NCBI GenBank assembly: GCA_000503835.1
Contig: CP006914.1
Coordinates: forward strand, 45,790-109,789
Length of the DNA: 64,000 nt
From: a candidate division WWE3 bacterium RAAC2_WWE3_1
Lineage (GTDB): Bacteria; Patescibacteriota; WWE3; UBA101185; UBA10185
Direction: 5' to 3'
The notes beneath the pieces are model-generated. The model saw only the letters and a list, made by a program, of their open reading frames with translations, ran no database searches and had not been told where the DNA came from. Of the stretch, positions 9,751 through 64,000 are shown piece after piece. The translations under genes and the position numbers were made by a program. Within the stretch, counting starts at the first letter, position 1. Each line of letters starts with the position of its first letter.

Positions 9751-9822
9751 CACGGAAAAATTTAATAAAACCGCTTTTTTGTAGTAAAATTTTTTTTACG
9801 GCCAAATTTAGGGGAAAACTTA

Positions 9823-13125: not shown

Positions 13126-13140
13126 TTTCCGCATATAAAT

Positions 13141-40030: not shown

Positions 40031-41522
40031 GTATCTACCCTACGTTCTGTTCATTCTCGTGCATTTTTTTCTTTTAAATGTGAACACGGCGGAGTGGGGA
40101 GACTCATATAGAATACTCAGAGCTTCGGAATTTATAAGGGACGGGAGTTACCCTGAGGACGAAAAAAGACCACCTTTGTATTCTCTTGTGTTAGCCGCGA
40201 GACCCGCGGCAGCAGACCCCGTACTTTGGGCCAGGGGATTTATGTTACTGGCAGGTTTGGCCGGAATGTTTTTATTCGGGAAGTTTTTAAAGCAATACAT
40301 CAGGAACGAACGCTTCGTTTTTATCGGCATGTTATTTTTGTTGCTCAATCCTGATTTCTTATACTGGTCGATCCGGGTTATGGCGGATGTTCCGTTCGCA
40401 CTTTTAGCCCTTCTTGGAATTTACTTGTATAGAAAATGGAAGGATAATTGGACTTTTAAACGTTATTTCTTACTCGGTATTGTGGCCGGGCTTTCTATTT
40501 TAACCAGATTCGAAGGTTACATACTCGCGGCATCACTGTTCCTGTCTTTATTTATAGAACATAGGAAAAAGATCAAATATTATGTTTATTACGGGTTAGG
40601 TATTTTGCTTGTTGTTTTACCTTGGTTTTTGTACAGAAGTCCGTTTGCGTCTGAATACCTGGAAGAACCGGCAGGCCGCACTTATGACTGGACGATGATC
40701 TGGATTTACTTTGCCAGCCTATTAGCACTGTACGGGTTTGTTCCGGCATTTGCCCTACTCTCTGACCGCAAAAAGGATATATTCAGACTCTTTAAAAAGG
40801 AGCCTCACATTTCATTTTTCTTATTTTTCGAGCTCTTGTTAATACTTTTGTGGCCGGCGGCTATTCCGAGACTTTTTGTTGCGGTCGTGCCTATTTTAAT
40901 TCTTGTACTTACCCTGGTTTTGGAGAAATGGTGGGAGGACGGGAGGGAAAGCAAGAGTGTTTACGTAACGGCGGTGTCCTTACTATTATTTTATGTAGGT
41001 TCTCAGTTTTTTCTTAAATTGCAGTTTTTAATTTTAAATAAGGTACTTTTCACGACTCTGTTGATACTGCAGGTCGCTGCACTTTTATTTATCGTGAAAA
41101 AGAAATTCCGGCCGGCCGCAGTTTTGCTGGTTCTCACAATGTTATTTTGGTCGGTGTTTGTTATAAGACTGCACAAAGATATTTTTATTTCCGTAAAGAA
41201 CGCCGCCGAATACACCGTACGTAATCTTGAAGGCAAGGTTGCCTATAACGATGTCAGCAGTGTGTCCGACTTTTATCTGAATGTTTTGGATACTCCTAAG
41301 ATTTCCGGTTTTTATTACAACACGGAAAGTAAAAAGAATTTAACCTACGAGGCTTTACATCAGACGGGCGCCGATTATTTTTTAATTACAAACGAGCACA
41401 ACACTACCATGGAGCTGGATCTTGACTCCAGACCGTACTTAACTCCCGTGAAAGATTTTAGTTATAATGTAAACGGAGCCGAATTTTTTGCTAAAATTGT
41501 AAAGTTTGAGCGGAAGGACTAA
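39993..41522 (+). CDS. GT-C membrane glycosyltransferase, ArnT/PMT (GT39/GT83)-like
   Basis: 509-aa polytopic protein; the N-terminal loop EDEKRPPLYSLV resembles the ArnT/PMT catalytic loop. Confidence 0.6.
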   Translation: MKYMTLQPKIIFKYLPYVLFILVHFFLLNVNTAEWGDSYRILRASEFIRDGSYPEDEKRPPLYSLVLAARPAAADPVLWARGFMLLAGLAGMFLFGKFLKQYIRNERFVFIGMLFLLLNPDFLYWSIRVMADVPFALLALLGIYLYRKWKDNWTFKRYFLLGIVAGLSILTRFEGYILAASLFLSLFIEHRKKIKYYVYYGLGILLVVLPWFLYRSPFASEYLEEPAGRTYDWTMIWIYFASLLALYGFVPAFALLSDRKKDIFRLFKKEPHISFFLFFELLLILLWPAAIPRLFVAVVPILILVLTLVLEKWWEDGRESKSVYVTAVSLLLFYVGSQFFLKLQFLILNKVLFTTLLILQVAALLFIVKKKFRPAAVLLVLTMLFWSVFVIRLHKDIFISVKNAAEYTVRNLEGKVAYNDVSSVSDFYLNVLDTPKISGFYYNTESKKNLTYEALHQTGADYFLITNEHNTTMELDLDSRPYLTPVKDFSYNVNGAEFFAKIVKFERKD

Positions 41523-41524
41523 AT

Positions 41525-42211
41525 ATGAAGTTATCTATTGTTGTTCCCGTGTACAACGAAAAAAACACGATAGAGAAAATTTTAGGGGAGATAAAGGCCG
41601 TCGAAGGTCTGGATAGAGAAATAATAGTGGTGGACGACGCCTCAACGGACGGTACCACTGATATCTTAAAAAGGCTTGAAAAAGAACATCCCGATGTCCG
41701 TTTCTTTTACAAAGAGAAAAACAGAGGCAAGGGGCACACACTGAAGGTGGGGTTTGAACACACCACGGGCGATTACGTTATTGTTCAGGACGCCGATCTC
41801 GAGTACGATCCCAATGACTACCACAAGCTCATCCGCGCTTTAGACGAGCACCATGCCCAGGTTATATATGGAAGTAGATTTTCTGGAAGCTACGAGGATA
41901 TGTCCACGCTACATTACATTGGTAATAAAGTGCTCACCATAATCACGAACCTTTTTTTCGGAGTAATGCTGACCGACATGGAAACCTGTTACAAATTAAT
42001 GCCGGGAGAATTTGTAAGAAAAGTGAACATCAAATCAGATAGGTTCGATTTCGAACCGGAGATAACTGCCAAGATTCTAAAGTCAGGTTTGAAGATAAGA
42101 GAGGTTCCTATTTCTTACAGAGGCCGCACTCACAGCGAAGGTAAAAAAATAACGTGGCGCGACGGCATTCACGCCCTACTCACCCTGATAAAATACAGGT
42201 TTTTAGACTAA
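41525..42211 (+). CDS. GT2 polyprenol-phosphate mannosyl/glucosyl-transferase (DPM1-like)
   Basis: MKLSIVVPVYNE...VVDDASTDGT...VQDADLEYDP. Confidence 0.8.
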   Translation: MKLSIVVPVYNEKNTIEKILGEIKAVEGLDREIIVVDDASTDGTTDILKRLEKEHPDVRFFYKEKNRGKGHTLKVGFEHTTGDYVIVQDADLEYDPNDYHKLIRALDEHHAQVIYGSRFSGSYEDMSTLHYIGNKVLTIITNLFFGVMLTDMETCYKLMPGEFVRKVNIKSDRFDFEPEITAKILKSGLKIREVPISYRGRTHSEGKKITWRDGIHALLTLIKYRFLD

Positions 42212-42213
42212 TT

Positions 42214-44322
42214 ATGAAAATTACAAAGTTTATTAAGGAAAATTTTTTCATACTGTTGCTAACCGCATTTGTCATTATAAATATAGCGGTGAATTTCCGT
42301 ATAAACGTTTTCCGTTATAACAATTTTGATTTTGGGAAATTCGATCTCGGCAACATGTCTCAGATGCTTTGGAACACAATGCATGGAAGGTTCATGTATC
42401 TGACCGACTACTTTGGGACGAATCTTCCCAGATGGGCAATGAGCCACGTCGATCCAATCCTTTTACTTTTCCTTCCTCTGTTTGCGGCGTATCAGCACCC
42501 ACTAACGCTGGTGGTTTCGCAGTTCGTATTGGTCATCCTGTCTGCATTTTTGGTTTATAAGATAGCTTATTTGCGACTGGGATCAAAGGCGGCTTCGGCA
42601 ATGATCGGTGTCTCATACCTTTTATATCCGGCTCTCGGGTATCTGAACGCGTGGACCGGATTTCACGGTGTTACGGTTGCCATCCCGTTCTTTTTCGGGG
42701 CATTTTACGTTTTCGAAAAAATGTACAAGGATAAAAACTTCAGCAAAAAGAACTTAATTATATTTTGGATTCTTCTTGTCATTACGATGTCCGGGAAAGA
42801 ACAACTTCCTTTATATGTCGTTATGTATTCGCTGTTCATACTTCTGTTTAGACCGCTAAAGGAAGAGGGGAAAAAATTCTATCAAACGATTACCGGAAAG
42901 CTCGGTCTGTCGATGATGGTTGTTTCCACACTCTGGTTTATAACGGTCTTTATTATAATAATCCCGGCTTTTTCGCGTTACAGGGTCGAGGGATACAACA
43001 AATTCGCGCGTGAGATAGGCATAGCGGGGGACACTACACGCGACGTGTCAAAACCCAATTATTTCTTGAGCAGGTATGAAGCATTCGGTGAATCTTACAC
43101 CGATGTTCTTGTAGGAATGATTTTTGACCATCAAAAGGCAATAAGGATATTTTTCGGAGGCGATCGCATTGATAATCTGAGAAAAACCTTTGACCCTGTT
43201 CTATTCTTGCCGTTAGCTTATCCCCAGGTGTTGTTTATCGCAGTTCCCGACTTTATGATAAATTACCTGACTTCGGCCGACGGTGTCGGTACGGCTGAAA
43301 TAACAAACCATAGAATATCCATGATTATTCCCATACTTTTTATATCATCCATTTACGCCATAGGAATGCTGGCCGATACTTTGGGCAACATTAAAAAAAG
43401 ACGCCCTCGTGTCACGAAGGCCGTCCAGCTATTTTTTTCTCTGCTCCTTGTTATTTCAGGAATTAAAACATCGTACGCTTTTAATAACCCGGTTTACCTG
43501 TGGATAGACCAGGCCATCAGAAAAAGAGTTTTGGCAGAATCGGATCCCGGAGCTGTGTGGAAAAGCAAATTGAAGGTGGGGGAGGTGGTAAAACTACCTG
43601 ATTTGGATAACAAAGATGTTGAGTGCGCCGAGAAGATTGTTAATCTCATACCTGACGATGCTTCAGTTACCGGCCCCGACTATTTAGGCGCTCATCTCTC
43701 TTTAAGAGAGACTTACGCGATATTTCCCGGTTTGTACACCAGTGCGGATTACGTGATTGTTGATGTTTTTTCCCGCAAGATTCTGACCATTTTAGATGTT
43801 GAAACAAGTCTGGTGCGTGACGTTACCGCCGACATCATTAAAAGCAAGGATTACGATCTTTTGACCGGGTGCGGCAATCTGTTTGTTTTCAAAAAAGTAG
43901 GGTTCCATGAAAAGACTGACCTTCTTCCCATGCAGGAGAAATTTAGCTATCCGGCAAAATATAAGTACGATATTTTGTTCGGGACCGAAATTGCGGATTA
44001 CGACTACCCCAAACAGGCAACAAGAGGAGTTGCCGAAAACTTCAGACTCGTTTTTTATAAAAGAGAGAGTGACTCTTTGAACGGTTTTGTGATGTACATG
44101 ACTTTTATGAACGACAGGACGGGGGAATTGTATGAAATCGCCAACCTTCCGTCATTTTCACTTATACAGCCGGCCGACTGGGATTCGGGTCGTTACTATG
44201 TTGAGGATCTGAACGTAAACTTTCCGTCTTTTCTGGATGCCGGGGATTACAGAGTTTTCGTCGGAATGTCGAACAAAGTGAAAACCCGCAATTTATACAT
44301 AGGGAATATACTTATAAAATAG
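42214..44322 (+). CDS. Large polytopic membrane protein (DUF2079-like / putative GT-C) with a ~300-aa extracytoplasmic C-terminal domain
   Basis: ATG 42214, 3 nt after the upstream stop. ~12 TM helices followed by a soluble tail. The family name is from memory and not verified. Confidence 0.5.
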   Translation: MKITKFIKENFFILLLTAFVIINIAVNFRINVFRYNNFDFGKFDLGNMSQMLWNTMHGRFMYLTDYFGTNLPRWAMSHVDPILLLFLPLFAAYQHPLTLVVSQFVLVILSAFLVYKIAYLRLGSKAASAMIGVSYLLYPALGYLNAWTGFHGVTVAIPFFFGAFYVFEKMYKDKNFSKKNLIIFWILLVITMSGKEQLPLYVVMYSLFILLFRPLKEEGKKFYQTITGKLGLSMMVVSTLWFITVFIIIIPAFSRYRVEGYNKFAREIGIAGDTTRDVSKPNYFLSRYEAFGESYTDVLVGMIFDHQKAIRIFFGGDRIDNLRKTFDPVLFLPLAYPQVLFIAVPDFMINYLTSADGVGTAEITNHRISMIIPILFISSIYAIGMLADTLGNIKKRRPRVTKAVQLFFSLLLVISGIKTSYAFNNPVYLWIDQAIRKRVLAESDPGAVWKSKLKVGEVVKLPDLDNKDVECAEKIVNLIPDDASVTGPDYLGAHLSLRETYAIFPGLYTSADYVIVDVFSRKILTILDVETSLVRDVTADIIKSKDYDLLTGCGNLFVFKKVGFHEKTDLLPMQEKFSYPAKYKYDILFGTEIADYDYPKQATRGVAENFRLVFYKRESDSLNGFVMYMTFMNDRTGELYEIANLPSFSLIQPADWDSGRYYVEDLNVNFPSFLDAGDYRVFVGMSNKVKTRNLYIGNILIK

Positions 44323-45797: not shown

Positions 45798-47372
45798 ATG
45801 AAATTATGGAGCAGATCGCCGGATCTTATTAAAAACAAGTATATTGCTATCATTTTCTTCATTGTAGTTTTTTCCTTAACACGTTTTCTTTTTCTCGGAT
45901 CCGATGAGATAAATCCTGACGGAGTTAACTGGCATTATAGGTCGCAGCAATTTATTGTCGGTTTAAAATCGGGAGATTTTGAGCGAACTTACCAGCATTA
46001 CCACCCGGGCGTTACCTTAATGTGGATTACCGGAGTGCCGATTGAGCTCTACAAACAAATCACCGGCATCACCGCGTACGATCAGTTTAATTTTTCGGCA
46101 TTTAACACGGTTGCCAAAGTTTCTGTGGTCCTGGTCCAGCTAATTCTGACTTTTATCCTTTTATATCATCTTTCTAAGATTGTGGGGTTCAAAACCGCTT
46201 ATTTTTCGGTATTTCTATTCTCATTAGAACCTTTTTTTATGGGCAATTCCCGTTTGTACCACATGGACGTACTGCTGACCCTTTTTGTGTTTGTTGCCCT
46301 GCTTATAAGCTGGGTGAATTTGAAGGATTTTAGCTATAAAAAATCATTTCTGGCGGGCATATTTCTTTCGCTTTCGTTCCTGACCAAGAGTATCGGAATA
46401 GGTGCCTTATTCTTTGTTTTGCTCTTTTCCACCGCCTATTTCGCGAATAAAAAGGACATGAAAGGGCTGTTGAAGTATTTTTCCACAATTCTCGGGGCTT
46501 TTGTCTTAACAACTTTTATCCTCTTTCCGGCATTATGGGTGAGACCGGCATTTTATTTATCCGAAATATTTGCCGAGTCAGAAAGGGTCGGAATTAGAAA
46601 AGGACACGAGCAAATAATATTAGGAGAGACAACTCAGGACGCAGGAATTTTATTTTATCCGCTGGTAGTATTTATGAAAACAACACCTTTTTTATTGATA
46701 GGATTAGTTCTGTGTTTTGTTAAATGTTTCAGGTCCTATACAGCGCCCGCAAAAAACATCAGCTCGAAATATTCCAACCCTTATCTTTATCTCGGGTTGT
46801 TTTATCTCGGATATTTTTTCGTAATGATCTACCCGTCGAAGAAACTGGACAGGTATATGCTCCCTCTTTACCCTTTCTTAGCGTTAGCGGCTTCGTACGG
46901 AATTATAAGATCCTATTCCTTAATAAAAACGGCAAAGATGAAAAAGATATTTATGAGCGGGGTGGTATTTTTGTTCACGCTTTTTTATATTGTTCCGGCA
47001 ATCTCTTATTTTCCTTATTATTTCACGTATACAAGCCCTTTGTTCGGTTCACCCGTTTCGGCCAACAGAGTAATCGCTCAAAAACCTTTCGGTATAGCAG
47101 TTCCTGCTCTCAGGGATTACATAATCGACAGGTACGGCGGCGAGCCGGAGCTTGGTTTTATCGATACAAAACCCATGAAATCCATTTATTCAAATTCAAA
47201 AGTTGCGGATATCAGGGTAAACGGAACAAGTGATTATGAACTGTTAATTTTAGGAATAAACGAGGAAATGCCTGAAAAGGTTTTAAAGAGCGGCACAAGA
47301 TTCAGAAAAGATTCTTCGCTGTACGTTAACGGTCTGGAGTACTGGAGAATATATGTCAAAGAAGACAAGTAG
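45798..47372 (+). CDS. GT-C membrane glycosyltransferase, ArnT/PMT-like (paralog A)
   Basis: Polytopic; YHPGVTLMWI, LEPFFMGNSRLYHMD, KKLDRYMLPLYPF motifs are shared with the 48864 gene. Confidence 0.65.
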   Translation: MKLWSRSPDLIKNKYIAIIFFIVVFSLTRFLFLGSDEINPDGVNWHYRSQQFIVGLKSGDFERTYQHYHPGVTLMWITGVPIELYKQITGITAYDQFNFSAFNTVAKVSVVLVQLILTFILLYHLSKIVGFKTAYFSVFLFSLEPFFMGNSRLYHMDVLLTLFVFVALLISWVNLKDFSYKKSFLAGIFLSLSFLTKSIGIGALFFVLLFSTAYFANKKDMKGLLKYFSTILGAFVLTTFILFPALWVRPAFYLSEIFAESERVGIRKGHEQIILGETTQDAGILFYPLVVFMKTTPFLLIGLVLCFVKCFRSYTAPAKNISSKYSNPYLYLGLFYLGYFFVMIYPSKKLDRYMLPLYPFLALAASYGIIRSYSLIKTAKMKKIFMSGVVFLFTLFYIVPAISYFPYYFTYTSPLFGSPVSANRVIAQKPFGIAVPALRDYIIDRYGGEPELGFIDTKPMKSIYSNSKVADIRVNGTSDYELLILGINEEMPEKVLKSGTRFRKDSSLYVNGLEYWRIYVKEDK

Positions 47373-48867
47373 TCTTTTATACTTGATAATATTTCTTGCC
47401 CTGGTTTTGAGACTGGCAGGAATAAGTCACGGGTTCCCGTTTATTTTTCATCCCGACGAACCGACCATAGTTCAATCGGCTCTCGGAGTGAGGTTCGATC
47501 CGAATCCTGGTCATTTCGACTGGCCCCATTTTTTTATATACGCTAATTATTTTGTTTTTAACATCTTTGCCAAAATCCGTGACCTCGCTGTAGATTACAA
47601 CATTCAGAACTTCATGATAAAAATATTTCCATTAATGTGGGACGACACCGTCGTATTTTATTTTATTACGCGCGTTTTTGTGGCAGTGCTCGGGGGGCTC
47701 ACTGTTATTCCCGTATATAAAACAGGAAAAGTTCTTTTCGGCGAGAAAGTGGGTTTACTGTCGGCTCTGGCTTTTGCCGTGATACCTTTTCATGTCCGGC
47801 ACTCTCATTACTCCCTGCCGGATACGCCCATGTTGTTCTTCTTATCCTGGGGGATTTACTTTGCAGCCCGAATTCTATCTCAGGGATACCCTATAGACTA
47901 CGTCTTTTCGGGTTTGTTTATAGGAATAGCCGCCTCAACCAAGTATAACGGGGGTCTGGGAGCCCTTACGGTGCCTTTGGCGGCGTTTTTACGCCGGGTG
48001 CTGGTGAAAATGCGTCTCTCGGAAAATTTATCAGAAACAAGGGGGGATTTTCCCTATTTTAAGACCGTTCTGAACCTTATTTTGTCCGGAATTTTTGCTT
48101 TTTTGGGGTTTGTCCTAGGAACTCCTTACTCGGTACTGGATTACAAGACTTTTAGCAGGACAGACTCGCCGCTGGGGGCCTTTTGGCAGTTCACAAATGT
48201 CGGTTCCGTGGATTTTGCGGAGCACGTTAGTAAATTTTTCACTGATATTAGTTTTAAGATCTCAGATGATATGGGGTACACAATTTTGGTCTCTCTCTTT
48301 TTAACTTTAGGTGTAGTGTTAATAAGATTTTTGAAAGGTACGTTTTCAAGATTCGATGTATCGTTAATGTTTTTAATTGTTTCGGCGTTAGTTTTCATTT
48401 ACTACATCTCAGGTTTTGAAAAAAGCCGTTCGCAATATTATTTCATTATTTATCCTTTTGTATCCGTAGTTTTCGGTTATTTTTGTGTGTGGGTAGTGAA
48501 TAAGATAAGTTTGGGAATGAAGCCTCTTTATTTTCCAGTCATACTCCTGCTATTTTTAGCGCCTTTTTACCTTTCGGTTGATACCGCTGTGAGATTTTTG
48601 AGAAATGACACCCGTCTTGACCTGAAAAAATTCTTAGAGACGGAAGTACCGTTTGGCACGAGGGTAGTTTACGGAAGTTCGGACGCCGCGGCGGTATCGA
48701 AATACGTTTTTAACAACGCAGTAAAAGATCCCGGTAAGTTACCTAAAGGAACGCGGTATTATTACATAGAATTAAACAAGGGCGTCTCTTCAGGCCGTGC
48801 TATTTTCGAGGTGTCCAATAAGGGCAGAATAGGGCCGTATATCACTGTCGAGGAGATGATTAGATGA
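47353..48867 (+). CDS. GT-C membrane glycosyltransferase, ArnT/PMT-like
   Basis: MSKKTSSLLYLIIFLALVLRLAGISHGFPFIFHPDEP: ArnT-type N-terminus with a DE-containing first loop. Confidence 0.65.
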   Translation: MSKKTSSLLYLIIFLALVLRLAGISHGFPFIFHPDEPTIVQSALGVRFDPNPGHFDWPHFFIYANYFVFNIFAKIRDLAVDYNIQNFMIKIFPLMWDDTVVFYFITRVFVAVLGGLTVIPVYKTGKVLFGEKVGLLSALAFAVIPFHVRHSHYSLPDTPMLFFLSWGIYFAARILSQGYPIDYVFSGLFIGIAASTKYNGGLGALTVPLAAFLRRVLVKMRLSENLSETRGDFPYFKTVLNLILSGIFAFLGFVLGTPYSVLDYKTFSRTDSPLGAFWQFTNVGSVDFAEHVSKFFTDISFKISDDMGYTILVSLFLTLGVVLIRFLKGTFSRFDVSLMFLIVSALVFIYYISGFEKSRSQYYFIIYPFVSVVFGYFCVWVVNKISLGMKPLYFPVILLLFLAPFYLSVDTAVRFLRNDTRLDLKKFLETEVPFGTRVVYGSSDAAAVSKYVFNNAVKDPGKLPKGTRYYYIELNKGVSSGRAIFEVSNKGRIGPYITVEEMIR

Positions 48868-50480
48868 TGCTTAAATTGCTCAAAAATTACAAAATAGAAA
48901 TAATTTTCGTCTTACTTTTTATATTGTCCAGGTTTCCTGACCTTGGGTACGACGTCTTCAATACCGACGTGTGGAAATGGAAAGCCAGGAGCTACGATTT
49001 CGGAACCGGTGTTTTTACATGGGATTTGGAAAAGACAATTCAGAAATATCACCCGGGTGTCACTTTGATGTGGCTCGGAACCGCGGCAATCAAGGTTTAC
49101 AATTTTTATTCCGGATACTATCCGGTGGAAAATAATACCCAAATGATCTTTCAACTGCACTTTGTACAGAAACTTTTTGTTACGACGGCAGTAGCTGTAA
49201 CTTTGGCGTTCGGTCTTTTTGTATTAAAAAAGTTATTCGGGGCAAGAAAAGCCTTGCTCGTTGTTGCATTACTTAGTTTAGAACCTTTTTACATTGCACT
49301 GACACGCGTTTTTCATTTGGAGGGATTAATGTCGACTTTCATGTTTGCATCGTTTCTCTGGCTTTATTATTACACCCTCGATGTAACCAAGAAAAAAAGG
49401 TTATTACTTTCGGCGGTATTTGCCGGTTTGGCGTTCTTGACCAAGACATCGGCGTTATTTATGTTCCCTTATGCGGGGTTAATTCTGTTGCTGGAGGGTT
49501 GGAAGAGATCAAAGAATTTTGCGGGGGCCGTACGCGATGCTCTGCCGAAGATAGGGCAGTGGATTTTGGTATTCGCGGTCGTATTTGTGGCAGTTTGGCC
49601 AGCTATGTGGGCTTTTCCGAGCCAGGCTCTAAGTGCATTGTATAGAGGGGTTTCGGAGATAGGGATTGAGAGGGAGCACGTGCAATTCTATTTCGGCAGT
49701 CTCGTCGAAGATCCCGGCTTTTTTTACTATTTTGTAGTTTTGGGGCTAAGGTCCTCGTACCTGTTAATTTTAGGTTTAGCCGGTGTCGCGGTCTTTTGGA
49801 AAAAAATATTCAATGAAGGACAACGAAAGTTTTTGTTCTACATTTTGTTATTTGTAGGATTTTACTTTGCACAGTTGATTATCCCTACGAAAAAGCTGGA
49901 CCGCTACATTCTGCCGAATATTATGATGCTCTCTCTTGTCACTTCTTTGTTCTGGATTTGGGTTCTGGAAAAGATAAAAGGCAGAAGCTTTCTCAAATTC
50001 ATCCCGTTGGTAGCAGTGGCAATAATTCCGATGTTATATCTTCATCCTGATTATTTGTCGTATTACAACCCGATCTTCGGCGGCCTTAAAAAAGGAATAA
50101 ACGTTTTGGAACCTAAATGGATGATCGGGGGCAAAGAAATAATAGCTTTCTTTGAACAAAAAATGATCGAAGATGGGACACAGCCGGTATACAGCGATAC
50201 TTCGCCGGAGAGAATAATGAACGGTACGGGCACGCCAAATATACTAACCGTAGCTTTCCAGGAAAAATATTATACTCAGATACATCCTTTTTTCCGTAGA
50301 ATAGGGGGATTTGCGGTCATCGAGGATCTTACGCCTTTTGCGGTCAAGACAAAATATTTTGTCTACCCGGTCTGGAACGACGTTTCTGCGGAAGAAAAAA
50401 GATTCGGGCTCAGGTACATCGATAGTATTTATCTCCGGGGCGTGGAGGTGTACAGGGTCTACGAAAGAACTCCATTATGA
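48864..50480 (+). CDS. GT-C membrane glycosyltransferase, ArnT/PMT-like (paralog B of 45798)
   Basis: YHPGVTLMWLG, LEPFYIALTRVFHLEG, KKLDRYILPNIMM. Confidence 0.65.
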   Translation: MMLKLLKNYKIEIIFVLLFILSRFPDLGYDVFNTDVWKWKARSYDFGTGVFTWDLEKTIQKYHPGVTLMWLGTAAIKVYNFYSGYYPVENNTQMIFQLHFVQKLFVTTAVAVTLAFGLFVLKKLFGARKALLVVALLSLEPFYIALTRVFHLEGLMSTFMFASFLWLYYYTLDVTKKKRLLLSAVFAGLAFLTKTSALFMFPYAGLILLLEGWKRSKNFAGAVRDALPKIGQWILVFAVVFVAVWPAMWAFPSQALSALYRGVSEIGIEREHVQFYFGSLVEDPGFFYYFVVLGLRSSYLLILGLAGVAVFWKKIFNEGQRKFLFYILLFVGFYFAQLIIPTKKLDRYILPNIMMLSLVTSLFWIWVLEKIKGRSFLKFIPLVAVAIIPMLYLHPDYLSYYNPIFGGLKKGINVLEPKWMIGGKEIIAFFEQKMIEDGTQPVYSDTSPERIMNGTGTPNILTVAFQEKYYTQIHPFFRRIGGFAVIEDLTPFAVKTKYFVYPVWNDVSAEEKRFGLRYIDSIYLRGVEVYRVYERTPL

Positions 50481-53568: not shown

Positions 53569-53826
53569 ATGGAAGAAGTAACTACATATAAAAATCCAAA
53601 CTCGAAAGTGATAATAAAAGTCATAAATGATAAATGTATAAGTGCGGCGACCTGTATAATTCACGCGCCCGAAACTTTTGATCTCAACCCCGATGGTATT
53701 GTGTACGCGAAAGAAGGAACGTGGGATGAGGCCGAGAAAATTATCAAAGGGGCAAAATCCTGTCCGACAACTGCGATAATTGTCGAAGACCTTGAAGGCA
53801 ACGTGTTGTATCCTGAGAACAAATAG
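53569..53826 (+). CDS. Single-cluster [3Fe-4S]/[4Fe-4S] ferredoxin (Fer4_13/15, P450-partner type)
   Basis: DKCISAATCIIHAPETFDLNPDGIVYAKEG...SCPTTAIIV: a C-x5-C ... CP pattern like actinobacterial Fdx. Confidence 0.7.
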   Translation: MEEVTTYKNPNSKVIIKVINDKCISAATCIIHAPETFDLNPDGIVYAKEGTWDEAEKIIKGAKSCPTTAIIVEDLEGNVLYPENK

Positions 53827-53899: not shown

Positions 53900-55513
53900 A
53901 TGAAAATTGCGATAGGCTACCCTCCAATAGATCAGCTTAAAGGAGTTCCTTTATTATCTCAGAATAGGCAGTTCCAGTATTTCAACGCCCCCACATATAT
54001 TTACCCCATGGTTCCGGCTTATGCGGCTTCTTTGGCCAAAGAACGGGGATACAATGTGGTTTGGATGGACGGAATCTCCGAGAAGAAAACGTACGCAGAA
54101 TGGCTCACCGAGCTTGAAAATGAAAAGCCCGATTATCTTATGATGGAGACCAAAGCTCCGGTTCTAAAGTTCCATTGGAAAATAATAGATGAAATTAAAG
54201 TGAAATTTCCTAACATGAAGGTGGTTTTGGTAGGAGATCATGTTACCTGGAATCCTGTTGAAACGCTGGATGCCTGCAAAGTAGATTACATCATAACGGG
54301 GGGCGATTACGACTTTTTGCTTAGTGATATGGTCGATGCCATTAAAAATAATGCCTTTTTACCGGGTGGAATTTACGGAAGAAAAGAAGACACCGGCGTA
54401 TCGATTGATCCCAAGTGGCTGAAGATGCACAAGTCCGAAATATCCGGAGAAGAAGCATACTTTCAGAGTGGTCCTTTAGAGCTTCAACATAATCTTGATG
54501 ATCTTCCTTTTGTTGACCGTGACCTTACCAAGTGGAAACTTTACGCGTATGCGAACGGAAATTATAAATACACACCGGCGACCTACATGTATTCAGGAAG
54601 GGATTGCTGGTGGAACAGGTGTACCTTTTGTGTTTGGGACCATACACTAAATCCCAAAGGATTTTACAGAAGGTTTTCTCCCGAAAGGCTTTTCGCGGAA
54701 GTTAAACATGTTGTCGATAACTACGGGGTCAAAGAAATTTTTGACGACGCCGGAACCCTGTTTGTAGGACCTCCCCTGAAAAAGTTTTGTGAGCTGTTAA
54801 TAGACTCGGGGTATAACAAGAAAGTTGTTTTCGGGTGCAATATGCGTTTGAATGCTTTAACCTCCGAATATTACCGGTTAATGGGCAAGGCTAATTTTAG
54901 GTTTATTTTATACGGAATGGAGTCTGCGAACCAATTTACTTTAGATAAGCTGGACAAAGGTCTTCAGGTTGAAGAGATTGCGGAAGGTGCCAAAATGGCC
55001 AAAAAGGCAGGTTTGGAGCCCCATATTACAGTAATGCTCGGGTATCCTTGGGAGACTGAGGAAATGGCTCAAAAAACAATAGATTTAGCCAAGGATTTGT
55101 TTAAAAGAGGCTATGTTGACACAATGCAGGCTACAATCGTCATTCCCTATCCCGGAACTCCTTTGTATAAAGAGTGTGTTGAAAAGGATTGGCTGCAGGT
55201 CGGGGCGAAAGATTATGAAAAGTTTGATATGAGGGCGCCGGTCATGAAGATACCTTTTTCGAATGAACATCTGTACGAGCTGACCCAATCACTGTATTCC
55301 TCATTCTTTACCCCTCAGTATATTTTCAGAAAAGTTGTGTCTGTTAGAAATTGGAACGATGTAAGATTTCTCTGGTATTCGGCCTGGAAATTGATAGGCC
55401 ACCTTTTGGATTTTGATAAGGAACAGACTCGGGTAAATTGGTTATCGCCAAAGTTCTGGGGAAATGCGTTAAAAAGTATGTTCGGAACTGCCGCCGTGGC
55501 CAAGAAAGAATGA
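53900..55513 (+). CDS. B12-binding-domain radical SAM enzyme (class B-like) with a non-canonical Cx4Cx2C cluster motif
   Basis: N-terminal B12-binding-like region (DYLMMETKAPVLKFHWKIIDEIKVKFPNMKVVLVGDHVT); SGRDCWWNRCTFCVWDH; downstream radical SAM TIM-barrel blocks. Confidence 0.7.
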   Translation: MKIAIGYPPIDQLKGVPLLSQNRQFQYFNAPTYIYPMVPAYAASLAKERGYNVVWMDGISEKKTYAEWLTELENEKPDYLMMETKAPVLKFHWKIIDEIKVKFPNMKVVLVGDHVTWNPVETLDACKVDYIITGGDYDFLLSDMVDAIKNNAFLPGGIYGRKEDTGVSIDPKWLKMHKSEISGEEAYFQSGPLELQHNLDDLPFVDRDLTKWKLYAYANGNYKYTPATYMYSGRDCWWNRCTFCVWDHTLNPKGFYRRFSPERLFAEVKHVVDNYGVKEIFDDAGTLFVGPPLKKFCELLIDSGYNKKVVFGCNMRLNALTSEYYRLMGKANFRFILYGMESANQFTLDKLDKGLQVEEIAEGAKMAKKAGLEPHITVMLGYPWETEEMAQKTIDLAKDLFKRGYVDTMQATIVIPYPGTPLYKECVEKDWLQVGAKDYEKFDMRAPVMKIPFSNEHLYELTQSLYSSFFTPQYIFRKVVSVRNWNDVRFLWYSAWKLIGHLLDFDKEQTRVNWLSPKFWGNALKSMFGTAAVAKKE

Positions 55514-58121: not shown

Positions 58122-59159
58122 ATGGAAAAACCCACAGTGTCGATTTTAATACCGACATTAAACGCAAGTTCGGTGTTGGGGAATTGCTTGGAATCCATAA
58201 AAAAACAAAATTACCCGGCTGAAAAAATCGAAATTATTGTAGCTGACGGCGGTTCTTCTGATGGAACAGTTGAGATAGCCAAAAAGTATGGGGCGGTTGT
58301 TGTTGAGAACAAATTAAAAACAGGAGAAGCGGGAAAGGCAGCGGCGCTAAGGGCTGCAGGCGGAGAGTTTGCGGCGCTTATTGATTCGGATAACATTTTA
58401 CCCGACGGGAGTTGGCTAGAGCAGATGATTGAGCCTTTGCTGGAGCATGAGGAGGCAGTGGGAAGCGAACCGTGGCAGTACGTGTGGCGAAAAGAAGATG
58501 GGTTTATTGACAGGTATTGTTCTTTAATTGGGATGAATGATCCTTTCGTGATGTTTTTGGGAAATTATGATCGGGTGAACATACTGACAGGAAAGTGGAC
58601 GGAGGTTAAGCATGACGAAAAAGATTTCGGAGATTATTTATTGGTGGGTTTGGATAAAAGAGGAGTTCCGACAATCGGTGCTAACGGAACTGTGTTCAGA
58701 AGCGGGTTCTTGAAGAATAGGGTGAGAGGGGACTACCTATTCGACATTGATATTCTGGCGAAGGAGATAAAGGAAAAAGGGTTTGTGAAATTTATTAAAG
58801 TTAAGAATGGGATTATTCATAATTTTTGCGGAAGAGACGCTGGGAAGTTTGCGAGAAAACAAAGGAGGCGCGTGAAAGATTACCTTTTTCATTTGAATAA
58901 AAAGGGTGGCAGGGAGTTCGGATGGGGCGAGATGGACTTGGGAGGGCAGAGACCGTGGGGTATGATGAAGTTTGTGCTTTATACTTTGTTGGTGGTGCCG
59001 GTGGTGGGGCAGGCTATTTTAGGATTTTTAAAAAAGGCAGATTTCGCGTGGTTTTTTCATCCGGTTGCGTGCTGGATTACTTTGTGGGAGTACGGGTGGG
59101 GTCGAGTTGGCGGTTATTTTAAGACAGCGGAGTTGAGTAGGGAGGGGTGGGGGCAGTGA
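58122..59159 (+). CDS. GT2-family glycosyltransferase
   Basis: VSILIPTLNASSVLGNCLESIKKQNYP...IIVADGGSSDGT...LIDSDN. Confidence 0.75.
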   Translation: MEKPTVSILIPTLNASSVLGNCLESIKKQNYPAEKIEIIVADGGSSDGTVEIAKKYGAVVVENKLKTGEAGKAAALRAAGGEFAALIDSDNILPDGSWLEQMIEPLLEHEEAVGSEPWQYVWRKEDGFIDRYCSLIGMNDPFVMFLGNYDRVNILTGKWTEVKHDEKDFGDYLLVGLDKRGVPTIGANGTVFRSGFLKNRVRGDYLFDIDILAKEIKEKGFVKFIKVKNGIIHNFCGRDAGKFARKQRRRVKDYLFHLNKKGGREFGWGEMDLGGQRPWGMMKFVLYTLLVVPVVGQAILGFLKKADFAWFFHPVACWITLWEYGWGRVGGYFKTAELSREGWGQ

Positions 59160-59165: not shown

Positions 59166-59846
59166 ATGGGTGATATTAAGATTAATGAAAAAAACAGTTT
59201 GACGTTAGTAAAGGTCAACTTAGGGTGCGGACCTAGCGGTATTGACGGTTGGATAAATTATGATTGGGGAATTCTTCCACTAATATCAAAAATTCCGTTT
59301 TTGCAAAGAATTATATTTTCTTTTAGGTTACTTCCTTCTTTTTACTCTGCAAAATGGCCGAAGCTTGAGCTTGTAAATATACAAAAAAAATTACCATTGA
59401 AGGACGAATCCGTTAATTACATTTATTGTTCTCATGTGCTGGAACATTTCGAACCGTGGGAAGCCTTAGGTGTGTTAAAGGAATGTAAGCGCATCATGAA
59501 AACTGGCGGTGTTTTAAGAATTGTAACGCCCGATATTCGCAAATTGATTGATATTTACCTTAATTCTGGTAACAATGCTCGCGCTGCGAGACTTCTGTGT
59601 AACATGTGGTGGGGATTTGATAAAGATAGGCAGCCTACAAGTTTTTTGGAAAAGCTTTCGAGAAGATTTACCAGAGAGCATCTTTGGAACTATGATGAAG
59701 AGGAAATGACTGCTCTTATCAAGTCCGCAGGTTTTAATCACGTATCCTTGGTTTCCGTAGGAAAAGGCGAAGTGCCGGATATAGACAGGCTAGATTCCCC
59801 AAAAATGGCAAATACTAGTTTATATGTGGAGGTTAAAAAAATATGA
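59166..59846 (+). CDS. Class I SAM-dependent methyltransferase
   Basis: VNLGCGPSGIDGWINYD..., VLEHFEPWEALGVLKECKRIMKTGGVLRIVTPD. Confidence 0.7.
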   Translation: MGDIKINEKNSLTLVKVNLGCGPSGIDGWINYDWGILPLISKIPFLQRIIFSFRLLPSFYSAKWPKLELVNIQKKLPLKDESVNYIYCSHVLEHFEPWEALGVLKECKRIMKTGGVLRIVTPDIRKLIDIYLNSGNNARAARLLCNMWWGFDKDRQPTSFLEKLSRRFTREHLWNYDEEEMTALIKSAGFNHVSLVSVGKGEVPDIDRLDSPKMANTSLYVEVKKI

Positions 59847-61006
59847 CAAGTGTTTTGCTGATAACACCGTTTTTTCTTCCGAACATAGGCGGTGCTGAAA
59901 CATATGCCTTTGAGCTTGTTGAATATTTAAGATCGCACGACTGTTTAGTGAATGTGCTTACTTATCAACCTATAACAACACCCAACGTTAGGGGCGAGAG
60001 GATGGAGAAAAGAAACAATTTAGTTATAAATCGTTTCCAGTGGATAGGATTCAATTTGTTTGGAAAATTGGAGAAATATCCCCTTATTAATTTTCTTTAT
60101 TTGACTCCGTACCTTCTGCTTAGAAGTTTTGTATGGATGCTATTTAACTCAGGAAAGGTTGATGTCATAGATGCTCAAGGTTTCAACAGCGCTTGTATTG
60201 CAGCAGTTTTGAAAAGAATTTTCAAGAAAAAGGCGGTAATAAGCGTAATGAGTTTGTATGATTTCAAGCCGGGGAACATTTTATCAACGCTAGTTGGGGC
60301 GGTAATCTCGAAAATGGATCACGTTATAGTAGAGAGTAATCGGAGTAAAGAAGAACTTATTTCAATCGGAATAGCTTCTGAGAAGATTACGCCGTACATT
60401 GAGTGGCTAAATCTAGATGTGTTTAAGCCTTACAATAAAATTGAAATGAAGGAAAAGCTGGGGTTGCCGGCACAATTTACTGTTTTGTTTGTAGGGAGAG
60501 CCATAGAGATAAAGGGAATAGATCTTATACTTGAATCAGCCAAAAAACTGCGTAATGAGAAAATAAGCTTTGTGTTTATATCGAATGCGGGGCCTATGAT
60601 GGGCGAGTTGGCGGAGGCAGCATCTAAGGCATTGAATATAGTATTTATACCGGGAGTACCGTACAATAAATTACCCGAGTATGAATCTGCAGCAGATGTT
60701 GCGGTTATACCCTCCAAGTATTCCGAGAATTCTGCAATAACGGTTTTGACTGCTATAAGTTGCGGTACCCCGGTGATTGCATCCAGAGTAGGAGCGATAC
60801 CGAGTTTACTAACCGACGAAGTTGGTGTATTGGTAGAGCCTACTGCCGAGAGCTTCTCTTCTGCGATTTTGGGTTTGTTTAAGGATGGAGTGAGGTATAA
60901 CCAAATGCAGAATAATTGTGAAAGCTATGCAAAGAAACACTTTAGCATCGACAATGCATCTACTATTTATAAAGTTTATTTAAAGGTGCTTGATAGGAGC
61001 TTTTAA
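59843..61006 (+). CDS. GT4-family glycosyltransferase
   Basis: ...IPSKYSENSAITVLTAISCGTPVIASRVGAIPSLL... Confidence 0.72.
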   Translation: MTSVLLITPFFLPNIGGAETYAFELVEYLRSHDCLVNVLTYQPITTPNVRGERMEKRNNLVINRFQWIGFNLFGKLEKYPLINFLYLTPYLLLRSFVWMLFNSGKVDVIDAQGFNSACIAAVLKRIFKKKAVISVMSLYDFKPGNILSTLVGAVISKMDHVIVESNRSKEELISIGIASEKITPYIEWLNLDVFKPYNKIEMKEKLGLPAQFTVLFVGRAIEIKGIDLILESAKKLRNEKISFVFISNAGPMMGELAEAASKALNIVFIPGVPYNKLPEYESAADVAVIPSKYSENSAITVLTAISCGTPVIASRVGAIPSLLTDEVGVLVEPTAESFSSAILGLFKDGVRYNQMQNNCESYAKKHFSIDNASTIYKVYLKVLDRSF

Positions 61007-61007: not shown

Positions 61008-62102
61008 ATGATATATGTAACAAAGCCGACATTACCGGATATTCAAGATTACACAAATTTAATGAAAGGAATTTGGGAGCGCGGGTGGTTGACCAACAAC
61101 GGTGTGCTCGTTCAGCAGCTTGAAAACCAGTTAAAACAATATCTGGAAGTTGGGAACCTTTCTTTAGTCACTAACGCTACGATGGGTTTGTTACTGGCGC
61201 TGTATGCCTTAGATTTAGAAGGCGAAGTTATAACTACTCCCTTTACATTTGCAGCTACGACCAACGTTTTATTTATGAAGGGACTTACGCCGGTGTTTGC
61301 TGATATCGACCCGGAAACCTTTAATATTGATCCCGCCGATGTAGAAAGAAAGATTACAAAGAAAACCTCGGCGATTCTTGCTGTCCATGTTTTTGGAAAT
61401 CCCTGCGATATAACCGGGCTAGAAAAAATTGCCAAGAAACATAAATTGAAACTAATATTTGATGCAGCGCACGCCTTCGGAGTACAGTACAAAGGTAAAT
61501 CAGTCTGTGAATATGGGGATGTGTCTGTACTAAGTTTTCATGCAGTGAAGCTGTTCAATACAGTGGAAGGCGGGGCAATCGTTGCAAAAACTGAACAAAT
61601 CTCCCATAAATGTAAGTTATTTAGGAATTTCGGATTCGAGTCCGAGGAAGAAATTGTATTACCGGGGGTTAACGCAAAAATGAGCGAATTCCACGCAGCA
61701 ATGGGATTATGCAACCTCAAATCTATCAAGCGGGTTATAGATAAAAATAGGAAATATTTTGATCTTTACGTAAGATTAATGGACGGGGCTAATGTAAGAT
61801 TTCAGAAACCCGAAATATCGCGGGTGGTTCATACTTATATGCCGGTATGCTTCGACTCAAAGATTACAAGAGATAAAGTATATGACCACTTGGTGAAAAA
61901 CGGTTACTCGTCAAGAAAATATTTTTATCCTTTGACATCGGATTTTGACTATTTGCATACGAAAAATAAGAAGAAAAAAGTGAGTAATAATCTAATTAAC
62001 GCAAGGAAAGTAGCCGACACAATACTATGTTTACCACTTTATCCGAGTATGGAGAAGCGTGACATAGAAAAAATTTGTAAGCTGGTAAAAGAGATATGCT
62101 AG
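61008..62102 (+). CDS. DegT/DnrJ/EryC1/StrS-family PLP-dependent nucleotide-sugar aminotransferase
   Basis: LVTNATMGLLLALYAL...DAAHAFG...SVLSFHAVKLFNT (PLP Lys). ATG 61008 (the track start 60990 is in the overlap). Confidence 0.82.
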   Translation: MIYVTKPTLPDIQDYTNLMKGIWERGWLTNNGVLVQQLENQLKQYLEVGNLSLVTNATMGLLLALYALDLEGEVITTPFTFAATTNVLFMKGLTPVFADIDPETFNIDPADVERKITKKTSAILAVHVFGNPCDITGLEKIAKKHKLKLIFDAAHAFGVQYKGKSVCEYGDVSVLSFHAVKLFNTVEGGAIVAKTEQISHKCKLFRNFGFESEEEIVLPGVNAKMSEFHAAMGLCNLKSIKRVIDKNRKYFDLYVRLMDGANVRFQKPEISRVVHTYMPVCFDSKITRDKVYDHLVKNGYSSRKYFYPLTSDFDYLHTKNKKKKVSNNLINARKVADTILCLPLYPSMEKRDIEKICKLVKEIC

Positions 62103-63850
62103 AGATTAGACCTCTCAAGTTAACTGATTTTTATCGTCTGCATTCTTCTTATGATGATTTAGGTTCTGGGAAGCATTTTATTGATCTATACTGGCTTGGT
62201 TTAAGACACATGTCGCTGAAATGGCTGTTGGCGCAAGGTGGTCTGTTCGGCTCTACAACTCCTCTAATAAGAGGTATTCTCAGGAGAATTTATTACAGAT
62301 CCGTATCTTTCTCTGTTGTAGCTGTCGACGAGGGTAAGATATTGGGGCACTGTTTCGCAATTTTAAGAGATAGGAAGCAAGATGGTTCTTTTATTGTTGA
62401 ATACGGTATATGGGTTTCAGAGAAAAGTAGGGGGTTGGGAATAGGGCTAAAACTTACGAAAAAGATAATAGAAGTCGTTACTTCTTATGGAGCGATCTCC
62501 GGGATAAGATTATATGTTTGGGAAAATAACGTCGGAGCGATTGATTTATATAGGAAAATAGGATTTACGCAGAGCAAGGTGATAAAACAAGATAAATCCA
62601 TCGGTGATGAAAAGTTTGATACCGTTGAGATGTACTTGCCTATAATTTTCGAATCGGATAGAAGAAAGTCAGCGCTGTTCATTGCAAATGGTATAGATGA
62701 GGTTAGTCCCGGTGTTGCAGGTGGAGAGACGCGTTTTATAGAGATTGCCAAAGGCTGGTTTTCCAGGGGGCTGACTATGCACCTGTTGAGTAGCAAGGGC
62801 GGGTATAAGCTTTGTTCTGATTTTGGCCTTAGTGTAGTGCCACATTACATAAAGTCAATAACTAGGTCTGGAAGATTCAGTTTTCTATCCAAATCTTTTT
62901 ATAGTATGTTTTTACCAAAAAGCTTGACGGGTAGCAGAATTGACATAGTTTATAGTACTAACGAGCAGTTGTACGACGTACTTCCTGGGTTATTACTAAA
63001 AATAAAAAAAGGGAATTCTTTGAAATGGGCAGTTGTTGTTCATTGGCTGCCGCCATATAAGTGGTGGGGGAGAAAGCAGTCTACGTTTACCAACTCCTTT
63101 TTGTTTTTAGTGAGCGAAAGGATAAGTTTGTATATAGCTTGTTTGTTCGCGGATCGGATATTGGCAGTTTCAGAGTCTACAAAGAATCAGATAGAGAATG
63201 ATTTTTTCGCTAAATTTTTTGTCAAAAAAGTAGGTGCTGTGAAGTGCGGTGTTAATTTTTCCGACATGAAAAAAGTATCCGATCGCGTCGAGAAAAAAAT
63301 ATACGATGCAGTTTTTTTAAAAAGACTTCAGGCAGTAAAAGGTATATTTGATCTAATAGATATTTGGGAAATGGTTGTTAAAGAATTACCTGGCGCAAAA
63401 CTTGTGGTTATTGGTGCAGGAATAGACGGAGAAGAGGCTAAGAGGAGGGTGTTAGAGAGAGGGCTAGATAAAAACGTCATATTTAAGGGGGCCATATACG
63501 ATTTTGATACAAAAGTTAAGGAGTTGGCAAGCGCTAAAATATTTATGTTGCCGACATATGAGGAGAACTGGGCCATAGCGATAGGAGAGGCAATGGCAGC
63601 TGGCGTGCCTGTCTTTGCCTACGCCCTTCCTGAATTAGATGCCGTGTGGGGAAGCAACTACTGCGGTATACAACTTGGAGACAAGGTTAATTTTGCTAAT
63701 AAAGTAATATCAGCTCTCAAAGATCAACAACTTTTGGATAGTATGAAATTGAAAGCCTTGAATTTTGTGGAGGGTTACGACTGGGATTTAATATCTGCTG
63801 AAGAATTAGAGCTGGTTAAAAGGGACGTCGATGAAAAACCACGCCGTTAG
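62096..63850 (+). CDS. Bifunctional fusion: N-terminal GNAT N-acetyltransferase domain plus C-terminal GT4 glycosyltransferase domain
   Basis: GNAT motif VVAVDEGKILGHCFAIL...RGLGIGLKLTKKIIE...YVWENNVGAIDLYRKIGF; C-terminal GT-B block YEENWAIAIGEAMAAGVPVFAYALPELD. Confidence 0.7.
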   Translation: MLEIRPLKLTDFYRLHSSYDDLGSGKHFIDLYWLGLRHMSLKWLLAQGGLFGSTTPLIRGILRRIYYRSVSFSVVAVDEGKILGHCFAILRDRKQDGSFIVEYGIWVSEKSRGLGIGLKLTKKIIEVVTSYGAISGIRLYVWENNVGAIDLYRKIGFTQSKVIKQDKSIGDEKFDTVEMYLPIIFESDRRKSALFIANGIDEVSPGVAGGETRFIEIAKGWFSRGLTMHLLSSKGGYKLCSDFGLSVVPHYIKSITRSGRFSFLSKSFYSMFLPKSLTGSRIDIVYSTNEQLYDVLPGLLLKIKKGNSLKWAVVVHWLPPYKWWGRKQSTFTNSFLFLVSERISLYIACLFADRILAVSESTKNQIENDFFAKFFVKKVGAVKCGVNFSDMKKVSDRVEKKIYDAVFLKRLQAVKGIFDLIDIWEMVVKELPGAKLVVIGAGIDGEEAKRRVLERGLDKNVIFKGAIYDFDTKVKELASAKIFMLPTYEENWAIAIGEAMAAGVPVFAYALPELDAVWGSNYCGIQLGDKVNFANKVISALKDQQLLDSMKLKALNFVEGYDWDLISAEELELVKRDVDEKPRR

Positions 63851-64000
63851 TAAGTTTTACACGGCAGCATCTAGAGTTAAAAAGCTTCTGTCTTCGGCAC
63901 TAAAGATTCGTATCCGTTTATTAAACTCAGCCTTCTTTATGGGAATGGCGAACTCGTTATACAAGCTTGAGAAACTTCCAATCTTTTATCCCGTAGCGTT

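Follow-up and report, generated by a model that had tools for sequence, protein, structure and literature searches.

Why would a bacterium join an acetyltransferase covalently to a glycosyltransferase and place the combined gene directly behind that of a sugar aminotransferase? This question is raised by a locus of the uncultivated candidate division WWE3 bacterium RAAC2_WWE3_1, which we analyzed as a stretch of 64,000 nucleotides (nt) (CP006914.1, 45,790-109,789, forward strand; hereafter 'the window'). Patescibacteria, also known as the candidate phyla radiation (CPR), have tiny genomes and very large surface-glycan loci, and the window spends approximately 30 kb on one such locus. Here, the gene of a DegT-type aminotransferase is followed by a gene for a protein of 584 amino acids (aa) that combines a GNAT acetyltransferase with a GT4 glycosyltransferase. 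On balance, we favor the reading that DegT and the fusion protein act together as an amino-sugar N-acetylation/transfer module, encoded in a very large WWE3 glycan-assembly cluster.

A GNAT-GT4 fusion gene behind a DegT aminotransferase gene

The DegT gene (61008-62102, + strand) encodes a 364-aa pyridoxal phosphate (PLP)-dependent sugar aminotransferase of the DegT/DnrJ/EryC1 family (Pfam DegT_DnrJ_EryC1, PF01041, 315 bits). Its open reading frame (ORF) runs from an ATG at 61008 to a stop codon at 62100-62102; the longest version of the ORF begins at a TTG at 60990, and the gene calls of the parent contig start at the ATG at 61008. The fusion gene (62096-63850, + strand) begins before DegT ends. 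The sequence ATGCTAG, holding the ATG of the second gene and the TAG of DegT, is read directly in GAGATATGCTAGAG. An earlier annotation made from the letters of the window (the original prediction) had proposed a DegT gene followed by a 584-aa protein with a 7-nt overlap, and these coordinates confirm it.

The same annotation had divided the protein into GNAT and GT4 domains. Pfam and fold comparisons agree with this assignment: Acetyltransf_1 (PF00583) matches aa 71-157 with 48.6 bits (cutoff 20.7), Glyco_transf_4 (PF13439) aa 209-386 with 28.5 bits and Glycos_transf_1 (PF00534) aa 400-552 with 80 bits. The GNAT domain (aa 1-185, 62096-62650, + strand) has the mixed alpha/beta GNAT fold and contains the expected motif A, RGLGIG (62429-62446), in which R112-G-L-G-I-G117 fits the Q/R-x-x-G-x-G/A pattern of the acetyl-CoA pyrophosphate loop. 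In the subfamily alignment G117 is nearly invariant, N145 is invariant and AI.LYKK.GF is conserved. The domain is a predicted acyl-CoA-dependent N-acyltransferase, and its acyl donor is presumably acetyl-CoA. Its originally proposed extent of about 190 aa holds with one correction, namely that the domain includes the N-terminal 70 residues, which lie outside the Pfam match and hold a conserved insert.

A linker of only about 6-8 residues (aa 186-191, ESDRRK, 62651-62668, + strand) connects two complete folds, the second being the GT4 domain (aa 192-584, 62669-63847, + strand), a predicted retaining glycosyltransferase of the GT-B type with the hallmark LP(S/T)YEENWAI. Its C-terminal Rossmann part is matched by PF13692 (69.5 bits) in addition to PF00534. 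For the N-terminal Rossmann part the PF13439 score equals exactly the cutoff, and the structure agrees (predicted local distance difference test (pLDDT) >90, full-length superposition). The EX7E motif (63563-63589) corresponds to E490-x7-E498, and all 17 aligned family members share K409, R410, K415, G416, E489, E490 and E498. The catalytic motifs of the domain are intact. AlphaFold2, run with an 87-sequence alignment, produced a continuous two-domain model (pLDDT 86.9, predicted template modeling score 0.72) in which most of the GT-B part exceeds 90 and the sole weak interdomain segment is aa 186-188 (pLDDT <50). Fold searches against PDB and BFVD returned single-domain matches only, those in BFVD being limited to the GT part.

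An index of the assembly collection lists this 584-aa protein, unchanged in sequence, in 102 blocks, among them ENA ANAN16-1 scaffold_181 (locus L001) and NCBI GCA_003516475.1 contig DPCM01000003.1 (L002). Frame and junction are preserved in orthologous fusions that share 84, 78 and 54% identity with it, and DegT adjoins the fusion in every fused locus, even at 54% identity (L001-L004, L007, L008). L008 belongs to candidate division WWE3 bacterium RIFOXYC2_FULL_42_13, the nearest species-representative genome with the fusion. In unfused orthologues the protein starts at a position corresponding to aa ~190 (M-KK-x-ALFIA). Nei-Gojobori dN/dS values between the window and L004 or L008 are 0.068-0.076 for GNAT and 0.057-0.061 for GT4 (dS ~1.2-1.4); GNAT is therefore as constrained as GT4. 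With the identical copies and the diverged orthologues all in frame, we found no frameshift or stop codon splitting the window gene. The fusion is a real, selectively maintained bifunctional gene.

In one relative with ~81-90% protein identity (L007, 3267-5024; ENA ERZ13693045 NODE_3133) the fusion is called as two ORFs. A single in-frame AAG-to-TAG change is located at about codon 123, just past motif A, the sequence beyond it is conserved and in frame, and the dN/dS of GNAT is mildly raised (0.14). This stop reflects either a recent loss or truncation of GNAT or a sequencing error, and is not evidence for an artefact.

The fusion had been described as uncommon, and it is indeed a rare arrangement. 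A search with the full-length protein yielded 136 homologue clusters at E<=1e-5. Among the best 120 of these 136, only four contain a GNAT domain; the others are GT4s of 337-411 aa with 39-55% identity, together with two proteins of greater length (503 and 706 aa), likewise without a GNAT. These homologues derive from Patescibacteria (WWE3, Gottesmanbacteria), Omnitrophota, a Thermococcus and others. When one genome per species is considered, 41 loci encode the GT4 family and L008 is the only fused one (1/41). A search of the open-access literature brought up no earlier description of a GNAT-GT4 fusion. In a neighbor-joining tree of GT4 domains, built without bootstrap support and on small identity differences, the fused proteins do not form one clean clade: in its GT4 domain, P0004 shares 61% identity with the unfused P0007 and 58% with P0001-P0003. 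This pattern suggests either a loss of DegT and GNAT in the P0005/P0007 lineage or two separate gains of the fusion.

The same GNAT subfamily is fused to three different GT4s, and in both orders (P0001, P0122, P0159). P0122 is a GNAT-GT4 protein whose GT4 half is ~24% identical to that of the window and does not possess the LP(S/T)YEENWAI hallmark. P0159 carries the domains in reverse order (GT4-GNAT) and has an intact insert motif. These architectures therefore represent at least three independent GNAT-GT4 fusions.

We searched for GNAT homologues by exhaustive phmmer against 1.84 billion representatives, which gave 451 matches at E<=1e-3 and 24 at E<=1e-10. The best matches, stand-alone proteins 173-201 aa long, align over aa 4-182; a word-indexed search with the GNAT part alone returned one protein only, the truncated L007 copy. 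The helical insert that marks the subfamily (~aa 21-69, 62156-62302, + strand) is located between beta1/alpha1 and beta2 of GNAT. It comprises ~45 aa and is conserved across 24 members with the consensus ...MYDSLS..SK.FFHP.FLG....WL..Q.AL.LS.....R..L.... Its predicted helices (pLDDT 79-94) are hydrophobic at aa 41-53 and cationic and amphipathic at aa 56-65 (hydrophobic moment, muH, 0.82), and the region had no sequence match in the PDB. The best sequence and fold matches of the GNAT domain are generic, protein N-terminal or amino-acid acetyltransferases, and its scores stay below the equivalog level of PseH (TIGR03585)/WecD-type enzymes. The domain belongs to a coherent, uncharacterized subfamily with a conserved insert.

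DegT carries the motifs SFHAVK, with the PLP lysine K181 (61548-61550), and DAAH (D152); the position is occupied by lysine, not by the histidine of the dehydrases. The closest solved structure is that of DesI (2PO3, 201 bits), a dTDP-4-keto-6-deoxyglucose C-4 aminotransferase with the same PLP-lysine and Asp motifs. Since DesI, the nearest characterized relative, acts at C-4, the favored substrate position is C-4 of an NDP-4-keto-6-deoxyhexose. DegT scores below the NCBIfam equivalog cutoffs for DesI (TIGR04427, 276 versus 650) and PseC (TIGR03588, 220 versus 423.5), and the C-4 assignment is therefore a lead only. DegT is not a DesI equivalog, and we do not carry over regio- and stereochemistry or the nucleotide carrier.

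The GT4 family is widespread and unannotated, with members in CPR, Chloroflexota, Omnitrophota and archaea. Foldseek aligned the GT4 domain of the fusion to BshA, MshA, PimB', HepE and PglA (E 3e-18), with TM(target) 0.74-0.80 for BshA, MshA, PimB' and PglA. With BshA, MshA, PimA/PimB' and PglA it shares the GT-B fold, EX7E and the diphosphate-binding K/R residues, but the Foldseek alignments show only 13-18% identity. The NCBIfam BshA model (TIGR03999) gives 61 bits versus a cutoff of 273.7. Donor and acceptor are not transferable from these GT4 enzymes. Three further assignments were considered and rejected. A mycothiol- or bacillithiol-like system (MshA/BshA plus MshD) is at odds with scores far below the cutoffs and with the polysaccharide-cluster context. 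An anti-phage 'GT4-conflict' defense role has against it a PF20706 score of 23.0 bits versus a cutoff of 26 and a PADLOC search that gave no match. A PseG-PseH-type fusion is ruled out by the clear GT4 with EX7E, by the GNAT-first order and by PseH and PseC scores far below cutoff.

Gene contexts and alternative readings

How does the fusion relate to the aminotransferase in front of it? We individually examined five loci of the GNAT subfamily (L050-L054), and wherever the flanks are informative the genes belong to glycan clusters. Members are located directly beside DegT in three independent lineages: that of the window, L050, where the stand-alone P0123 is arranged as GNAT-DegT-nucleotidyltransferase, and L054, which reads [GT4-GNAT]-DegT with P0159. 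The DegTs of L050 and L054 are only 30-33% identical to that of the window, and GNAT therefore pairs with diverse DegTs. In L051 GNAT lies between a GT4 and a 4,6-dehydratase, where the contig ends. These recurrent contexts support the notion that DegT and GNAT act as a pair.

A different setting was seen in L052 (JGI 3300028917) and L053 (GCA_012974985.1), which are glycan clusters with GT4 and no DegT within 7 kb. Here, the stand-alone GNAT is encoded between an Acetyltransf_6 (FemAB-like) protein and a polytopic membrane protein of 1165 aa, in a neighborhood with polysaccharide deacetylases and UDP-glucose dehydrogenase. The amine substrate of these GNATs might derive from de-N-acetylation rather than from transamination.

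Unfused orthologues of the GT4 domain offer a second perspective. In L028 the gene order is hexapeptide acyltransferase, DegT (43% identical to that of the window), methyltransferase, GT4; in L038 it is DegT (54% identical), formyltransferase-methyltransferase fusion, GT4; and in L029 a 4,6-dehydratase-type short-chain dehydrogenase/reductase (SDR) is followed by DegT and GT4. Different N-acylating enzymes beside DegT near the same GT4 family would be the pattern expected if GT4 handles an N-acylated amino sugar in those lineages. The L038 protein (8320-10002, 560 aa), in which a formyltransferase N-domain is fused to an S-adenosylmethionine (SAM) methyltransferase, is itself probably a two-in-one enzyme for amino-sugar N-formylation and methylation. 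In the unfused loci with DegT in the vicinity (L028, L029, L038, L020 and L030) the GT4 orthologue is directly followed by a UDP-GlcNAc 2-epimerase (Pfam Epimerase_2, 372 bits in L028; the others share the GTRPE(I/A)IK N-terminus), which does not occur in the locus of the window.

Based on these contexts, we propose that DegT would use PLP to aminate a nucleotide-linked keto-sugar, that the GNAT domain would use acyl-CoA to acylate the new amine with an acetyl or another short acyl group, and that the GT4 domain, working on the cytoplasmic side of the membrane, would add a sugar, most likely the freshly N-acetylated one, to a lipid-linked or glycan acceptor of the same pathway. Fusion and translational coupling would keep the GNAT and GT4 activities equimolar and adjacent, and the flippases and GT-C enzymes encoded in the cluster might take over the later steps. 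Substrate, order of the steps and identity of the GT4 donor with the GNAT product are what we infer here. The original prediction assigned the fusion a channeling role. Such channeling is a conjecture, and the fusion could equally serve stoichiometry or co-localization. Bacillosamine or QuiNAc derivatives, named there as products, are guesses.

Of the amination-acetylation-transfer route predicted earlier, the pairing of DegT and GNAT is backed by recurrent context. Three observations weigh against the remainder. DegT occurs within 10 kb in only 5 of ~40 unfused GT4 loci. In L005 and L006, which encode the closest unfused GT4 orthologues, no DegT or GNAT lies nearby, so GT4 is not intrinsically dependent on the proposed N-acetylated sugar, and this leaves room for the transfer of a different one. 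Finally, we found no SDR dehydratase, WbpB-type sugar dehydrogenase or sugar nucleotidyltransferase in the 64-kb window plus 10 kb downstream (~74 kb), and this locally unseen source of the keto-sugar is a weakness of the proposed module.

A first alternative accepts the pathway and changes the transferred sugar. DegT and GNAT would make the N-acetylated amino sugar, the fused GT4 would transfer a common sugar, and another transferase, such as the separate GT4 encoded at 59843-61006, would install the amino sugar, so that the fusion would only co-localize enzymes. We regard this as possible, albeit rather unlikely. The GT4 family is overwhelmingly unfused and mostly without DegT or GNAT neighbors, its closest unfused members do without both, its more constant neighbors are a ~1200-aa membrane protein, methyltransferases and GT2, and the adjacency of the upstream GT4 to DegT is equally conserved in the fused loci. 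However, the joining of one GNAT subfamily to three unrelated GT4s is more easily explained by consecutive steps, and in L028 and L038 DegT and an N-acyltransferase lie directly beside the GT4 orthologue. It is unlikely, in our view, that acetylation follows transfer, with GT4 first moving a free amino (or other) sugar onto a polyprenyl-phosphate-linked acceptor and GNAT, held at the membrane by its hydrophobic/amphipathic insert, then N-acetylating the lipid-linked intermediate. The two helices of the insert would suit such a role, as would the missing specific similarity to the nucleotide-sugar GNATs PseH and WecD and the stand-alone members in L052 and L053, which occur among glycosyltransferases and membrane proteins without DegT. 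In the domain model (pLDDT 79-94), however, the insert packs on the GNAT core at the usual region of the acceptor site and thus may merely shape a pocket for a soluble substrate. A Kyte-Doolittle analysis detected no segment in GNAT at 1.6, and the sole segment at 1.2 (aa 72-90) lies outside the insert. To our knowledge, all characterized amino-sugar N-acetyltransferases of such pathways (PglD, PseH, WecD) act on the nucleotide sugar, as does L142 of Mimivirus (PMC9614988). A broader version, to which we likewise give little credence, sees in GNAT a previously undescribed insert-bearing subfamily that is an obligate partner of GT4 and N-acylates lipid-linked amino sugars after transfer at the membrane, possibly from a non-acetyl acyl-CoA. 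If true, this order of steps would be new for DegT-derived amino sugars, and the three fusions would reflect a physical two-enzyme machine rather than just consecutive soluble steps.

Two alternatives deny the coupling altogether. GNAT might have nothing to do with sugars, being for example a RimI/Nat-like protein or small-molecule acetyltransferase that was joined to GT4 by chance loss of the stop codon between overlapping genes. This is in keeping with the generic, protein N-terminal or amino-acid acetyltransferases among its best matches and with the nonsense mutation tolerated in GNAT by the L007 relative. It is nevertheless very improbable given three independent fusions to GT4, repeated adjacency to DegT, dehydratase and nucleotidyltransferase, informative subfamily contexts that are all glycan clusters, and strong purifying selection on GNAT. 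The chance that the single ORF is an artefact, with a sequencing or assembly error merging two genes, is negligible. The region is called as two genes in L007, but that locus differs by an in-frame AAG-to-TAG with no frame shift and with conserved downstream sequence; the 102 identical copies, four diverged orthologue clusters that keep the frame, and the ~6-8-residue linker between complete folds all speak against it. The N-acetylation/transfer module remains our preferred reading of the locus.

The surrounding glycan-assembly cluster

The window contains serS, bacA and secA, as well as a block that we presume to encode ribosomal proteins; ORFs of 1100 and 1222 aa were taken to be rpoB and rpoC by size and position alone. 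The part from ~33 kb onward forms a single long glycan-assembly cluster, nearly all on the + strand. It encodes a GT2-GtrA protein and several GT2s, several GT4s, a UDP-glucose/GDP-mannose-type dehydrogenase, a B12-binding radical SAM enzyme, a methyltransferase, two Polysacc_synt flippases, four PMT_2 (GT-C) paralogues and a 722-aa DUF2079 membrane protein. Three of the PMT_2 paralogues are arranged in tandem, and as a group the PMT_2, DUF2079 and flippase genes are noted at 39993-41522 and 45798-50480 and at 42154-44322. For a CPR bacterium with a small genome, it is unusual to devote so much to glycosyl transfer outside the cytoplasm. Beyond the window, the parent contig continues with membrane proteins of 1244 and 525 aa, a methyltransferase, a PMT_2 protein and further GT4s.

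Directly upstream of the module lies a syntenic block whose order, GT2 - methyltransferase - GT4 - DegT - GNAT-GT4, is common to L001-L003. It starts with a GT2 glycosyltransferase (58122-59159, + strand; Glycos_transf_2, 82.6 bits), of which the 3' part is present at the contig edge in L004 and L007 and which is missing from L008. The SAM-dependent methyltransferase that follows (59166-59846, + strand, 226 aa; Pfam Methyltransf_23/11) is syntenic with the module, and a homologue with 37% identity is encoded between DegT and the GT4 orthologue in L028. The separate GT4 (59843-61006, + strand, 387 aa; Glycos_transf_1 91 bits, Glyco_transf_4 44 bits) lies directly 5' of DegT and adjoins it in all fused loci.

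On the other side, the fusion gene overlaps by 20 nt with the 5' end of the gene for the 1244-aa polytopic membrane protein (63831-64000, + strand, continued in L001 at 11736-15470). This protein has ~7 hydrophobic segments, and a Pfam search relaxed to E 0.1 gave no match. Over its N-terminal ~550 aa it shares 25-27% identity with the 1185/1186-aa proteins encoded behind GT4 in L003 and L005, and proteins of this type are a conserved downstream neighbor of the fusion's GT4 family. BLASTP and profile HMMs revealed no homology to the ~1000-1165-aa Pfam-less proteins beside the GNATs of L051-L054, and we claim no link to them. The 525-aa membrane protein encoded next likewise has no Pfam match. 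The 1244-aa protein may be an uncharacterized polymerase or GT-C-like partner of the GT4 family.

Further upstream, the B12-binding radical SAM enzyme (537 aa, 53900-55513) is preceded on its 5' side by an 85-aa ferredoxin-like gene (~53569-53826, according to the L001 gene call). Homologues with 37-82% identity occur within 10 kb of the GT4 family in ~11 of ~40 unfused loci, which is more common than the co-occurrence with DegT; such loci are found in Chloroflexota, a Weeksellaceae bacterium and a Methanothrix metagenome-assembled genome, among others. Its role in glycan synthesis might be C-methylation. Between 55599 and 56857, four small ORFs on the minus strand (102, 97, 86 and 127 aa) interrupt the + strand cluster. 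They had no match in Pfam, PHROG or PADLOC and are present in L001/L002 and absent from the more distant fused locus L003.

Comparison with known systems

The fusion may serve as a 'Rosetta stone', because it offers a testable role, in which the N-acylation of an amino sugar from DegT is coupled with a GT4 step, for both an uncharacterized insert-bearing GNAT subfamily and an uncharacterized GT4 family. Should these activities be borne out, one polypeptide able to acetylate and transfer a rare amino sugar could aid chemo-enzymatic glycan synthesis. The GNAT-GT4 fusion alters no general principle, and there are precedents for joining an amino-sugar N-acetyltransferase to the transferase that acts next (PMC11130364; PMC9614988; PMC11626204).

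For the proposed reaction itself, the closest comparison is with PseH and WecD. Both are GNAT-fold enzymes that acetylate the C-4 amine of nucleotide-linked 4-amino-4,6-dideoxyhexoses provided by the DegT-family aminotransferases PseC and WecE, respectively (PMC4363471). The type of reaction is the one we propose for the GNAT of the window, whereas membership in their subfamilies is not indicated by its scores.

For the architecture, Neisseria PglB is a precedent, since it covalently joins the acetyltransferase completing diNAcBac with the transferase that takes up the UDP-sugar in the following step (PMC11130364). More generally, bifunctional monotopic phosphoglycosyl transferases (BiPGT) constitute a class fused to acetyltransferase or glycosyltransferase domains (PMC11626204). 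In these proteins the transferase is a phosphoglycosyl transferase that starts a lipid-linked glycan, unlike the GT-B GT4 of the window. Their acetyltransferase is of the PglD hexapeptide type and not a GNAT. In a Pfam scan at E<=0.01 we found no Hexapep match in the window fusion.

The Mimivirus protein L142 comes closer in its overall design. Its N-terminal N-acetyltransferase was shown biochemically to acetylate UDP-Vio4N, and the predicted glycosyltransferase at its C-terminus was proposed to transfer the acetylated sugar (PMC9614988). UDP-Vio4N is made by a DegT-type aminotransferase (L136), and the system includes a dehydratase (R141) (PMC9614988). Like the window fusion, L142 is a two-domain protein encoded in a glycan gene cluster with methyltransferases and several glycosyltransferases (PMC9614988). 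Its acetyltransferase was modeled on Neisseria PglB, with a predicted homotrimer and a catalytic His (PMC9614988), and is probably a left-handed beta-helix enzyme rather than a GNAT. This half is thus an analogue and not a homologue of the window GNAT, and the glycosyltransferase domain was not shown to be a GT4. Judged by these comparisons, the likeness of the window fusion to L142 and PglB is an analogy of architecture only: the design that unites the last tailoring enzyme with the transferase, as in PglB and L142, seems to have evolved again from another pair of folds, at least three times.

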